Under the pieces are notes generated by a model. The model did no database searches. It saw nothing but the letters and a program-made list of their open reading frames with translations, and had not been told where the DNA came from. A stretch of 64,000 nt of DNA from Candidatus Kapaibacterium sp. (GTDB lineage: Bacteria; Patescibacteriota; Patescibacteriia; UBA9934), in assembly GCA_044350705.1 (NCBI GenBank), contig JBILHA010000001.1:244242-308241 (forward strand). Reading direction: 5' to 3'. A program made the position numbers and the translations under genes. Each line of letters starts with the position of its first letter. Within the stretch, counting starts at the first letter, position 1. This document shows, one piece after another, positions 8,698-22,283 of the stretch.

Positions 8698-8935
8698 TAA
8701 AAATCTGACAGCATGTCTGTCGGGTTTTTATTTTATCTAAAATAATCGAACCCACGACGGTTCGATGGTCAAGCGAGTGAGTGGAGCTATAAAGCTGAAT
8801 CTATGCGCTTTATAGCTCCCGAACGAGCACCGACTCAATCCGGAGGCGTAGCCGAGATCCCCGCTCGGCGCACCACAAAATCCCGATCGCAGGTCTGTCG
8901 GGTTTTTGTTTTTGAAACAGGTATAATCTTGGTAT

Positions 8936-12890: not shown

Positions 12891-14264
12891 GTGAAGACGG
12901 ATGTGGCGGATAATGGCCTCATTTGTTACTCTGAAAGAAAATGCTTATCTATGCTCCATGCTTTGAAAAAGGCTGTTCCACAGCCTTTGCTCCAGATTTA
13001 TCATGCTAGCCTTGGGTATTTGGCTGGTATGGTGTACCGGCATCCTTCTGATGAAATGGTGGTTATTGGGGTGACGGGGACAAATGGAAAATCCACGACT
13101 GTTCAGTTTATTGCTCAGCTTCTTTGTGAACTAGGTGAAAAAGTGGGATATACCTCTACCGCAGGTTTTTCTATTGCGGGAAGGTCGGTTGAGAATCGTA
13201 TGAAAATGACCATGCCGGGTCGTTTTGTGTTGCAAAAAATGTTGCGGGATATGCGCGATGCGGGCTGCACCTATGCCATTGTTGAAACTTCCTCGCAGGG
13301 ACTCGCGCAGTTTCGTCATGTAAGTATCAACTATGATGTTGCGGTATTTACGAACTTAACCCCTGAGCACATTGAGGCTCACGGAAGTTTTGATGCGTAT
13401 AAGCGCGCAAAGGGTCTTTTATTTTCTCATCTTACCGCTCGTGCGCACAAGGTTCTTGCGGGAAAGCGCATTGCGAAGCAAATCGTGGTGAATCGTGATG
13501 ATGAGCATTCTGCTTTTTATGCGCAGTTTCCCGCGGATCGTCATTGGTCTTTTGGATGGAATGTGCATCCGGAAGAAGGGGTGTATGCAGAAGATATTTC
13601 TGGAGATGGGGAAGGTGCGCGAGTGCGTGTAGCCGGGAAGGAGGTTTCTTGGCAACTTCCCGCGCATTTTTCTCGTCTTAATGCGCTTGCGGCGATTACC
13701 GCGGTGCATGCGTGTGGTTTTCCCCTCGCAGACGTTCTTCAAGCTTCAGAGAAACTCCATGATGTCGCAGGACGATTTGAGCGCATTGCGCTCGGGCAAC
13801 CTTTTACGGTGATTGTGGATTACGCCTATGAGCCGTATGCCTTGCGTGCGCTTCTTGATTCCTTGCCACCTTATACGGGAAAAGTTATTGGTGTTCATGG
13901 TTCAGCGGGGGGAGGGCGTGATAAGGCACGTCGTCCGCTTATTGGAAATTTGGCCGCAGAGCGTGAGGATGTAGTGATCGTAACGAATGAAGATCCGTAC
14001 GATGAAGATCCGCAGGTCATCATTGATGCGGTTGCTGCGGGCGCACGGGAGAAAGGGAAGCGTGAGGGAGAAGATTTGTTCCTTATTTCTGATCGAGGAG
14101 AAGCGATTCGCTTTGCGTTGCAACAGGCTGAGCCAGGGGATGTTGTTCTTATTACCGGAAAGGGGTCGGAGCCGGTTATGGCGGTTGCGGGCGGGAAAAC
14201 CATTCCTTGGGATGACCGACAGGTGGTTCGAAACGTGCTATCATCTTTAGGGTATGGCGCATAA
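12891..14264 (+). CDS. murE: Mur ligase, most like MurE (UDP-MurNAc-tripeptide synthetase)
   Basis: P-loop VTGTNGKSTT; C-terminal GDVVLITGKGSE…IPWDDRQVV resembles the MurE GKGHE…DDR ending. MurF cannot be excluded. Confidence 0.65.
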   Translation: MKTDVADNGLICYSERKCLSMLHALKKAVPQPLLQIYHASLGYLAGMVYRHPSDEMVVIGVTGTNGKSTTVQFIAQLLCELGEKVGYTSTAGFSIAGRSVENRMKMTMPGRFVLQKMLRDMRDAGCTYAIVETSSQGLAQFRHVSINYDVAVFTNLTPEHIEAHGSFDAYKRAKGLLFSHLTARAHKVLAGKRIAKQIVVNRDDEHSAFYAQFPADRHWSFGWNVHPEEGVYAEDISGDGEGARVRVAGKEVSWQLPAHFSRLNALAAITAVHACGFPLADVLQASEKLHDVAGRFERIALGQPFTVIVDYAYEPYALRALLDSLPPYTGKVIGVHGSAGGGRDKARRPLIGNLAAEREDVVIVTNEDPYDEDPQVIIDAVAAGAREKGKREGEDLFLISDRGEAIRFALQQAEPGDVVLITGKGSEPVMAVAGGKTIPWDDRQVVRNVLSSLGYGA

Positions 14265-15666: not shown

Positions 15667-15793
15667 AAGATGTGCCACTAAGTTTGTTCAGATTCAAGGA
15701 GCCGACGAGCACGGCCGAGGCGTAGGTAAATCCTACGGTGAGGCCGCGCGCAGGAGGCGACGCCGAAGATGGACAAACTTGGGTGGCACATCT
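15667..15793 (+). ncRNA. Candidate structured RNA / long hairpin spacer between tRNA-Gly and tRNA-Thr
   Basis: About 20-bp imperfect inverted repeat (AGATGTGCCACTAAGTTTGT ... ACAAACTTGGGTGGCACATCT) enclosing a GC-rich ~85-nt interior with a perfect hairpin CGTAGG-TAAAT-CCTACG. Ends 2 nt before the tRNA-Thr 5' end. Family unknown. Confidence 0.4.
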
Positions 15794-15795
15794 GT

Positions 15796-15871
15796 GCCGA
15801 TGTAGCTCAGTTGGTAGAGCAGCGGTATCGTAAACCGCAGGTCACCGGTTCGAGCCCGGTCATCGGCTCCA
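15796..15871 (+). tRNA. tRNA-Thr (anticodon CGT)
   Basis: Acceptor GCCGATG/CATCGGC, D-arm GCTC-AGTTGGTA-GAGC, anticodon stem GCGGT/ACCGC with loop aTCGTaa, T-loop GGTTCGAGCC, CCA. Confidence 0.85.
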
Positions 15872-17527: not shown

Positions 17528-17599
17528 ATGAGTTGTGGGGTGTTACTTGGCAAAGTAAGGAATGTTTGGCATAGTGTTACGCGTCTTGTTTTTTCAAGA

Positions 17600-17735
17600 T
17601 AAGTCTCGAATTCCTCTTCATTTCGAGGCAGTTTGGACCTACAGAGGGAGGATTGCTGATCCGTACCTAAATGTACGGAGAGGCAACCGGACTGATAGGG
17701 GCTCCAAAATGACCGAAATGAAGAGGAATTCGCTT
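17600..17735 (+). ncRNA. Candidate structured RNA / long hairpin leader immediately 5' of tRNA-Gln
   Basis: Perfect 19-bp long-range helix (CGAATTCCTCTTCATTTCG ... CGAAATGAAGAGGAATTCG) closing a ~95-nt interior with a central hairpin CCGTAC-CTAAAT-GTACGG. The 3' strand of the helix ends 1 nt before tRNA-Gln. Same architecture as the element at 15667-15793. Confidence 0.4.
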
Positions 17736-17809
17736 TCCGAGATCGTCTAAAGGCAGGACAGCGGCCTTTGAAGCCGTGAATCATGGTTCGAATCCATGTC
17801 TCGGAACCA
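17736..17809 (+). tRNA. tRNA-Gln (anticodon TTG)
   Basis: Acceptor TCCGAGA/TCTCGGA, 3-bp D-stem, anticodon stem GCGGC/GCCGT with loop cTTTGaa, T-arm CATGG-TTCGAAT-CCATG, CCA. Confidence 0.8.
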
Positions 17810-17845
17810 AAAAAAGACTAGCTTTTTAGCTAGTCTTTTTTTGTC
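17810..17845 (+). terminator. Rho-independent terminator after tRNA-Gln
   Basis: AAGACTAGC-TTTTT-GCTAGTCTT perfect hairpin followed by a T7 run. Confidence 0.8.
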
Positions 17846-22062: not shown

Positions 22063-22151
22063 TGAGATGTCGGTTTAAGAGAAAAGGGAGGCATGATTGT
22101 GGAGAGGATTTTGGGTAATGGCGGGTTATTTATTTTAGTGTGAAAAACATG

Positions 22152-22232
22152 ACGTAAGTATACTTTACATTTTGCATTTCACGACGCAATAAACATTGGC
22201 GTTTTTAAAATGCATGTAAAGTATACTTACGT
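22152..22232. promoter_or_regulatory. Perfect 19-bp inverted repeat pair (ACGTAAGTATACTTTACAT / ATGTAAAGTATACTTACGT) separated by 43 nt; candidate operator upstream of the XRE regulator
   Basis: Read directly from the sequence. Lies between the XRE start (22062, minus strand) and the stop of the upstream minus-strand gene (22284). Confidence 0.5.
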
Positions 22233-22283
22233 TAGTTTTTTGACATAAAAAAGAAGAAGCATTTTCGTGCTTCCTCTCATTTC

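Follow-up and report, generated by a model that had tools for sequence, protein, structure and literature searches.

A hairpin abutting tRNA-Gln in a Patescibacterial contig and its uncatalogued, ERIC-like family of palindromic repeats

Palindromic intergenic repeats such as ERIC (short for enterobacterial repetitive intergenic consensus) have been used as strain-typing markers for more than 30 years. ERIC, also called IRU or RU-1, is a 127-bp repeat of Enterobacteriaceae and Vibrionaceae that resembles MITEs (miniature inverted-repeat transposable elements), with short inverted ends and TA flanks; it is co-transcribed with its neighbours and in Yersinia changes mRNA decay through an RNase E site, and the Correia elements are known to be cut by RNase III (PMC2229807, PMC3184786, PMC10969869). 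No transposase for ERIC is named in these reviews, the only functional evidence that they give concerns mRNA stability, and neither a tRNA-boundary position nor a 3′-side polarity of ERIC is reported in them (PMC2229807, PMC3184786, PMC10969869). Here we describe an ERIC-like element in a 64-kb stretch of the forward strand of contig JBILHA010000001.1 (the window, whose coordinates are used throughout), namely a hairpin of 126 nt (17607-17732) that lies between ftsX and the tRNA-Gln gene. Our favoured explanation, held with modest confidence, is that this Gln-site element is a copy of a MITE-like palindromic family of about 120 nt, which has its nearest described counterpart in ERIC and sets its 3′ end flush with tRNA or transfer-messenger RNA (tmRNA) boundaries.

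Other described repeats share some of these properties. The Correia (NEMIS) elements of Neisseria are also small palindromic repeats that are co-transcribed and whose paired ends give a long RNA duplex cut by RNase III (PMC10969869, PMC3184786), and by analogy the perfect 19-23-bp basal stems found here would suit RNase III. However, Correia elements have no sequence similarity to the present family, carry conserved inverted ends of 24-26 bp along with an IHF site and a TA duplication, and show no association with tRNA. REP/BIME and REPIN sequences are likewise multi-copy extragenic palindromes in either orientation, forming RNA hairpins that affect transcript stability, but they measure 20-40 bp, bear a GTAG or CGTC tag and are linked to the RAYT transposase (PMC3733652, PMC3116915), whereas our family is about 120 nt long, its G.A-rich interior is conserved, and no RAYT gene turned up in its vicinity. 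The Rickettsia palindromic elements, of around 100-150 bp, are tolerated in or near structured-RNA genes (tmRNA, RNase P RNA) of reduced genomes (PMC2229807); in contrast to the elements described here, their insertions fall inside genes and are often in frame, no polarity toward tRNA boundaries is known for them, and sequence similarity is not evident. A literature search on tRNA-flanking hairpins or MITEs in Patescibacteria found nothing relevant.

The tRNA-Gln hairpin and its family

The base of the hairpin is a perfect 19-bp inverted repeat, CGAATTCCTCTTCATTTCG / CGAAATGAAGAGGAATTCG, with its 5′ arm at 17607-17625 and its 3′ arm at 17714-17732 of the plus strand (inverted-repeat search and fold), and it ranks second in length among the inverted repeats of the window that span up to 250 nt. 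The first-pass annotation of this DNA had found the perfect helix but set its arms at 17605-17623 and 17715-17733 and left a single nucleotide before the tRNA; the arms lie as given above, and the linker, CTT (17733-17735), is 3 nt long. Its division of the interior into 35, 18 and 35 nt agrees with ours. The purine-rich 5′ strand (17626-17660; G.A-aware arm alignment and family alignment) pairs with the 3′ strand (17679-17713; family and arm alignments), which carries a conserved (A/U)GAGG motif beside the apical stem, and between them stands the apical hairpin CCGTAC-CTAAAT-GTACGG (17661-17678; sequence and family alignment), with the stem CGTAC/GTACG. That the two interior strands pair had also been proposed, and they do so, largely through tandem G.A/A.G mismatches. 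The copy is flanked by AAGTCT on its 5′ side and by CTTTCC on its 3′ side, the stop codon of ftsX lies 80 nt upstream, and the downstream partner is tRNA-Gln (UUG) at 17736-17809 on the plus strand, with an encoded CCA (ARAGORN; Rfam tRNA, 62.1 bits). A 62-aa open reading frame (ORF; 17562-17750) that overlaps the element was rejected as coding, as had been suspected: the reading frame is not conserved, and the ortholog in a close relative (L089) has stops in all three frames.

As RNA, the 139-nt stretch containing the element folds at -65.1 kcal/mol, compared with -36.2 ± 4.0 kcal/mol for 200 dinucleotide shuffles (z = -7.2), none of which was as stable; the reverse strand folds with nearly equal stability. 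When the 64 kb were scanned in 140-nt windows (mean -36.4, standard deviation 7.4), the Gln-site element ranked fourth. The first rank went to a sister element (15669-15792, plus strand; fold and model matches) in the spacer between tRNA-Gly and tRNA-Thr, which folds with z = -9.2 and ends 3 nt before tRNA-Thr (CGU) at 15796-15871 of the same strand (ARAGORN, Rfam).

The first-pass annotation had held that the two elements share their layout without any primary-sequence identity, and this did not survive. A covariance model built from five tRNA-Thr-type copies, with the Gln-site element of the window left out (model R1), detects that element at 49.3 bits (E about 9e-8, 1.3 Mb searched), and a sequence-only profile detects its core at E = 8e-5. 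The sister element scores 112 bits with R1 and 106 bits with model R2, which was built from 14 Patescibacterial copies and detects 18 copies in FtsX-anchored loci, a divergent locus (L004) and a Falkowbacteria locus among them. Iteration of the nhmmer profile reached 141 members, so that the family has more than 140 sequence-detectable members in the DNA sampled. Rfam 15 gave no match on the element, either at the gathering score or at E up to 10, and apart from tRNAs its sole match in the window and its relatives, with gathering as with permissive thresholds, was one tmRNA. The covariance-model search that had been proposed thus unites the two window elements in one family with a conserved and strongly covarying structure, which is uncatalogued, having no Rfam match.

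In the 14-copy alignment, which was fitted to the model and hence leans toward the model structure, standard pairs fill 91.7% of the cells, against 32-42% when the partners are slid by 1-3 columns, and 36 of the 39 pairs show changes on both sides; none of 500 shuffles matched such values. Near-perfect basal stems are also seen in single sequences, independent of that alignment. Given the z-score of -7.2 and the covariation over dozens of copies, the hairpin at the Gln site is real and not a chance palindrome.

The anatomy of the family combines variable and conserved parts. The basal stem, of about 19-23 bp, varies in sequence among copies and is unrelated between the two copies of the window; only sub-terminal boxes, CTAAGTTTG / CAAACTTGG or ATTTAAA, recur across other copies. 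In the interior, Watson-Crick pairs alternate with tandem G.A/A.G mismatches to give a near-continuous helix when the arms are aligned with G.A tolerated; in L003, for example, 5′-GGAGTGAGTGAG faces GGAACGAACGAC on the 3′ side, forming three repeats of a G.A, an A.G and then two pairs. A conserved GAG / (U)GA loop separates the interior from the tip, whose CGTAC/GTACG stem is the best-conserved part of the family. The terminal loop varies (CCAGAT, TAGACC, TGAAAG, ATGCA and others), so that the TAAAT loop, once taken as a feature common to the two window elements, is incidental. The mismatches are purine-purine on the given strand and would be pyrimidine-pyrimidine on the other, and the reverse strand scores far lower both with R2 and with the ERIC model described below; this strand asymmetry would predict a function in a single strand, either RNA or single-stranded DNA.

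Several described motifs were set beside the element and rejected. The K-turn was discarded for want of a 3-nt bulge, and SRP RNA, 6S RNA, Y RNA and T-box stem I differ in their motifs and gave no Rfam match. Domain V of group II introns has a similar GAGCCGUA..UACGG, with a closing strand that is UGA here and not UUC; for an integron attC site the conserved part of the element is wrongly placed, no reverse transcriptase that would fit a retron msd lies nearby, and the likeness to the sarcin-ricin loop is confined to one strand.

Two further hairpins beside tRNA genes carry the tandem-G.A motif. At 8698-8915 of the window, the last 21 nt of tRNA-Lys and its terminator are repeated some 180 nt downstream with about 80% identity by eye, and between the two copies lie an inverted T-arm copy (8745-8758) and a hairpin (about 8775-8840) with the motif at its foot, CGAGTGAG facing CGAACGAG, which gave no R2 score at E up to 5. 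It is resembled by a second type of hairpin directly 5′ of tRNA-Thr in L002 (8930-9035), which has the feet GCAAGTGAGGGTG..CACCCGAACGA, the G.A motif of the family and a different tip.

Promoter, leader position and tRNA boundaries

A sigma-70-like promoter, TTGGCA-17 nt-CATAGT with a TG before the -10 box, was found by consensus scan at 17547-17575 on the plus strand. The pattern TTGGCA-N17-CATA[C/G]T is kept upstream of tRNA-Gln in two close relatives, L089, in which the element is present, and L084, in which the site is empty. In L084 the promoter stands 12 nt before the first nucleotide of tRNA-Gln, with no element; in the window the distance from the -10 box to tRNA-Gln is 160 nt. Because the element lies between a conserved promoter and the start of tRNA-Gln, it occupies the place of the 5′ leader, and element and tRNA-Gln are probably driven as one transcript from this promoter. 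A 16-bp hairpin between A and T runs (17808-17843, plus strand; inverted-repeat search) is the likely terminator of this unit.

The stability of the element and its position 80 nt past the ftsX stop codon could also be read as those of a transcription terminator or attenuator of ftsEX. However, the element lacks the U-run that should follow the hairpin, the next sequence being CTTTCCGAG, and the terminator scan does not report it; moreover, the conserved promoter lies between ftsX and the element, and the same family precedes many unrelated tRNAs. Together with chance pairing, against which the fold and covariation values given above speak, this reading is largely refuted already, and we consider it very improbable.

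In the mechanism that the sequence suggests to us, the element would be transcribed as the 5′ leader of tRNA-Gln and would fold on its own into the 19-bp base, the G.A-stiffened interior and the CGTAC/GTACG tip. RNase P would then free tRNA-Gln by cutting 3 nt downstream of the hairpin, and the perfect 19-bp duplex may be a substrate of RNase III. Such a self-folding hairpin would keep the extra 126 nt from disturbing the folding and processing of the pre-tRNA, and we think that the element is kept self-paired mainly for this reason. The element may simply be tolerated, or, by analogy with the ERIC and Correia hairpins, it may modulate how the leader or the tRNA is processed or how stable the transcript is.

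The same relation to tRNA genes is seen far beyond the window. A scan of metagenome contigs with the core pattern gave at least 120 loci, and R2, run on the first 100 of them, found 88 copies; in all 28 tRNA-near copies listed, the tRNA lies 0-13 nt from the 3′ side of the element, and the adjoining tRNAs are those for Val, Thr, Ala, Leu, Phe, Ile, Gln, His, Tyr, Gly, and Arg. Run on all loci, the iterated sequence-only profile finds 73 copies in low-GC loci; of these, 38 lie no more than 60 nt from a tRNA or tmRNA, which is invariably on the 3′ side (38 against none on the 5′ side); in 31 of the 38 the tRNA is on the same strand, with the element as 5′ leader, and in the other seven it is on the opposite strand, with the element against its 3′ end. 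The metagenome loci were selected by pattern, which biases the absolute frequencies and leaves the polarity unbiased.

It had been suggested that the hairpins are either a structured non-coding RNA (ncRNA) family or an insertion element directed at tRNA 5′ flanks. The shared covarying structure, the tie to tRNAs and a presence/absence polymorphism (see below) are borne out, but the insertion target is not simply the tRNA 5′ flank, because copies also abut the 3′ ends of tRNA and tmRNA genes in reversed orientation, as well as the ends of protein genes. For instance, a tmRNA gene on the opposite strand of L012 (560-945) has a family member (434-550) ending 9 nt from its 3′ end, and orthologous copies in L010 and L015 lie 2-4 nt after the stop codon of a convergent ORF. 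In one metagenome, two contigs (L121, 4555-4815; L142, 1750-2010) share a module of 272 nt in which a 28-nt spacer joins a reversed element to a forward one. The module is 98.5% identical at a Gly-Thr(CGU) and a Tyr-Thr(GGU) junction; the identity starts directly behind the CCA of the tRNA upstream and ends at the first nucleotide of the tRNA downstream.

Family members were further seen 20-26 nt upstream of translation-GTPase genes in L110 (679-799), L150 (4204-4325), and L164 (2787-2906), two of which are SelB-like and one EF-Tu-like as read from their N-termini; there the elements would be hairpins of the 5′ untranslated region.

The strict polarity raises an alternative, namely that the hairpin is a free-standing functional ncRNA whose tandem G.A platforms bind a protein or another RNA. 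Its 3′ end would then be set by RNase P, for which the tRNA beside it, or else an antisense tRNA-like fold, serves as the signal, and the association would reflect how the RNA is made and not where it inserted. tRNA-like folds are known to set the 3′ ends of upstream RNAs in MALAT1-mascRNA, in tRNA-linked snoRNAs and in the tRNA-miRNA units of gammaherpesviruses; there too a structured RNA lies beside a tRNA or tRNA-like fold and has its end made by a tRNA-processing enzyme, although these cases are eukaryotic or viral and the analogy is one of mechanism only. Conserved unpaired purine motifs beside freely covarying stems, the 38-to-0 polarity, the gaps of 0-13 nt, the promoter upstream, a core common to distant phyla and the L121/L142 module that starts and stops exactly at tRNA processing sites would all agree with an RNA of this kind. 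Nevertheless, we judge it unlikely, given that the element is missing at both sites from very close relatives, that no associated gene recurs nearby, that several divergent copies occur per genome, and that its high-GC relatives do not lie beside tRNAs and resemble transposon-type repeats with inverted ends and short flanking repeats, as described in the next section.

Occupied and empty sites, and high-GC relatives

The named homologs of the FtsX encoded in the window are from Patescibacteria, mostly Candidatus Uhrbacteria, which makes the host a Candidatus Uhrbacteria-like Patescibacterium, and the gene order tRNA-Gly(CCC), tRNA-Thr(CGU), ftsE, ftsX, tRNA-Gln(UUG) is widely conserved in Patescibacteria, with spacers beside these tRNAs that range from 1 nt to more than 500 nt. 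Five close relatives, whose FtsX is 83-86% identical to that of the window, were compared (L082, L084, L087, L088, L089). Both the Thr-site and the Gln-site element are present in L088 and L089, and both sites are empty in L084, which has a Gly-Thr spacer of 17 nt and an element-free Gln leader. In L087 the Thr site is empty, with a Gly-Thr spacer of 15 nt, and the contig stops 197 nt after ftsX, leaving the Gln site uncovered. The comparison of the ftsX-tRNA-Gln junction that the first-pass annotation had called for therefore returned both states, and the empty sites in close relatives show the element to be dispensable.

No element was found in L082 (FtsX 84%), where the locus is rearranged and tRNA-Gly and tRNA-Gln are lost. 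Downstream of ftsX this contig (10968-20912), with no tRNA-Gln, holds a gene for an OLD-family ATPase/TOPRIM protein beside one for a UvrD-type helicase, a Gabija-like pair, as well as ParB-fused DNA methyltransferases; the block appears to be a defence island inserted at the ftsX junction.

More distant loci retain elements at the same sites. A Gln-site copy occurs in L004 (FtsX 56%) and Thr-site copies in L003, L006, L007, and L085 (FtsX 51-67%), with further orthologous copies in L089 and others; long hairpins of similar kind precede tRNA-Thr in L003, L006, and L007 and tRNA-Gln in L004. Between distant genera, copies that share a site resemble one another more than do the window's own two copies, suggesting that most copies are old and vertically inherited and speaking against recent hopping. 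Moreover, the Gln-site basal stems of the window and of L089 (FtsX 84%) differ by three fully compensated substitutions and one change from G:C to G.U, and such compensatory changes argue for a selection that keeps the element self-paired. The simplest history consistent with these sequences would be that the element has long been resident and vertically inherited, with sporadic losses and under selection to stay self-paired; repeated site-specific insertion is a possible alternative.

About 60 weaker matches came from other contigs, often with 60-75% GC, that share the tip and the G.A-rich interior. By its EF-Tu, one of them (L169) belongs to Wenzhouxiangellaceae (Gammaproteobacteria). These high-GC relatives sit in longer hairpins of around 200 nt with group-specific inverted ends such as AACCCGG.TTATTCATGACC, and conserved CGTAGCGA / GCAGTAG boxes were found in L097, L111, L120, L135, L157, L169, and others (e.g., L169, 6150-6400). 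They are not adjacent to tRNAs and are flanked by repeats of 3-5 bp, read by eye as TCA, TTA, TTAAG, CTCAG, and CTAG, and from sequence they look like active or recent MITEs, with a transposon-derived signature. A plasmid-borne state was rejected after a blastn search of two of them against PLSDB gave no plasmid match, and a phage origin of the family after the core pattern found no match in viral contigs. When the ORFs lying up to 3 kb from 62 non-tRNA copies were compared all against all, neither a recurrent transposase, reverse transcriptase or nuclease nor any other meaningful cluster emerged, and the sole recurring neighbours in this set are EF-Tu-type GTPase-like ORFs, at five loci.

In a further alternative, the hairpin would act at the level of DNA: a single-stranded or cruciform form would be recognised by a transposase or recombinase that inserts at tRNA ends, the conserved interior would be the binding site of this enzyme, and the RNA hairpin would be a by-product. 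The occurrence of both orientations relative to neighbouring genes, the occupied and empty sites in close relatives, the 272-nt two-element module that is nearly identical at two tRNA junctions of one metagenome, and the gammaproteobacterial relatives with their conserved inverted ends and 3-5-bp flanking repeats would all be in keeping with it. In addition, HUH-type proteins bind repeated sites, and the interior of the element shows a reminiscent four-base periodicity (GAGT/GAAC repeats). However, no transposase or recombinase gene lies near any copy examined, the Patescibacterial copies show no target-site duplications, same-site copies are more alike across genera than within one genome, and the G.A mismatches appear on one strand only, which is usually the transcribed one. 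We regard this explanation as rather improbable.

Likeness to ERIC and the weight of the evidence

The likeness to ERIC lies in the overall plan as well as in detail. Both are about 125 nt long, both form as a whole an imperfect palindrome that folds into a single long stem-loop, and both are intergenic, have G.A mispairs in the stem and appear to be co-transcribed with their neighbours, which in our case is read from the sequence. The motif order in ERIC is TTCGAGTTG..CAG..AAGG..GAG.GA..helix..GAG-CTTAC-loop-GTAAG-TGA..helix..GAGCG..CAACTTGAAG, and the sister copy at 15669-15792 follows a similar order, CTAAGTTTG..CAG..AAGGAG..GACGAG..GGCC-GAG-GCGTAGG-loop-CCTACG-GTGA-GGCC..CAAACTTGGG. The tip architecture is shared, in the succession of helix, GAG, 5-bp stem, loop, stem, TGA and helix.

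Searches were made in both directions. Of 10 independent ERIC copies (E. coli, Citrobacter, Klebsiella, and Salmonella), R2 aligns to 8 over their full length, with 14-27 bits on the forward strand (E 5e-5 to 0.03) and at most about 8 bits on the reverse. Conversely, a covariance model from seven ERIC copies (R3) gave only three matches with E < 1 in 504 kb of mixed loci, all with E below 0.01 and each a tRNA-flanking element of Patescibacteria in the right orientation, with no false matches. With filters off, the top two R3 matches in 11 kb of the window were the two elements, on one strand, with 17.1 bits for the sister (E = 0.005) and 12.2 bits for the Gln-site copy (E = 0.13), against noise of at most 7.6 bits.

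Several results weigh against an ERIC-like MITE. Unrelated hairpins score 11-21 bits with R2 on both strands, and since generic hairpins reach about 20 bits, the link to ERIC rests on strand specificity and on reciprocal, marginal E-values. The nhmmer profiles link the family and ERIC in neither direction, the iteration to 141 members included, and in pairwise comparison with the ERIC consensus the Gln-site copy reaches z = 1.3, other copies up to 4.5. The duplicated TA target of ERIC is absent at the Gln-site copy, which has neither TA flanks nor any other target-site duplication, and no consistent TA or duplication was found in 27 tRNA-adjacent copies. The hosts differ as well: ERIC is found in Enterobacteriaceae and Vibrionaceae, and the present family in Patescibacteria, its relatives belonging to Wenzhouxiangellaceae and further uncultured lineages. 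As to the MITE character, no insertion sequence with matching ends and no transposase or recombinase was seen near the copies examined. Shared terminal inverted repeats and, in the Patescibacterial copies, target-site duplications are missing; the basal stems vary from copy to copy, whereas a typical MITE keeps its terminal inverted repeats conserved. That the unpaired purines are strongly conserved and the 3′-side polarity is absolute suggests more than a neutral passenger, and the copies in opposite orientation that face tRNA 3′ ends are unexplained by a leader role.

On the other side, the elements are small, non-coding and present in several copies, with two in the window and as many as three on single contigs elsewhere, and their sites are occupied or empty in close relatives, as would befit an insertion element of putatively selfish origin. 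The element is ERIC-like, although the strict test of ERIC membership failed, and we give about even odds to true homology with ERIC as against convergence. The first-pass annotation had named a known MITE with target-site duplications among the findings that would refute its proposal; this is only half approached, in that ERIC is the nearest known repeat, the link to it is marginal, and duplications are lacking. On balance we modestly favour the interpretation given at the outset, a MITE-like family closest to ERIC whose 3′ ends face tRNA or tmRNA boundaries.

A more far-reaching alternative is that the hairpin and ERIC are one ancient structured-RNA module that crosses phyla, spreading as an excised spacer whose ends are set by tRNA-processing enzymes: RNase P at the first nucleotide of the next tRNA and 3′ maturation at the CCA of the previous one, possibly with an RNA intermediate. 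This would explain the 3′-side polarity, the 0-13-nt gaps and the identity of the 272-nt module from CCA to the next tRNA start, and if true would give the ERIC repeats a mechanism of origin and spread; we hold it to be improbable.

An ERIC-like architecture in Patescibacteria would extend this type of repeat to a phylum that is very distant and whose reduced genomes have little DNA to spare. The strict positional rule, by which the 3′ end faces a tRNA or tmRNA boundary, offers a testable link to tRNA transcription or processing. Leaders of around 120 nt would belong to the pre-tRNAs, which bears on tRNA annotation, on promoter placement and on the substrates of RNase P and RNase III in uncultured lineages. 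Should the link to ERIC be mere convergence, the family would still be an uncatalogued structured element with the membership given above. What is new is a palindromic, MITE-like RNA-hairpin repeat family with a tRNA-boundary polarity, of a kind, the ERIC-like repeats, that is already known, and we consider the finding moderately interesting.

Other hairpins and unusual regions were noted in the window. An AT-rich inverted repeat at 22126-22258, whose arms of 45 nt are 80% complementary and have 43 nt between them, reaches about 20 bits with R2 whichever strand is scored, as a generic hairpin would. Another hairpin (13591-13730; stem of around 19 bp; -63 kcal/mol in a 140-nt window) lies inside a Mur ligase ORF (12891-14264). 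Finally, the most stable folds of the window after the sister element, with no Rfam match, are found at 352-948, where a 198-aa ORF of about 66% GC on the minus strand, in a genome of 47% GC with genes otherwise on the plus strand, is probably a foreign gene.

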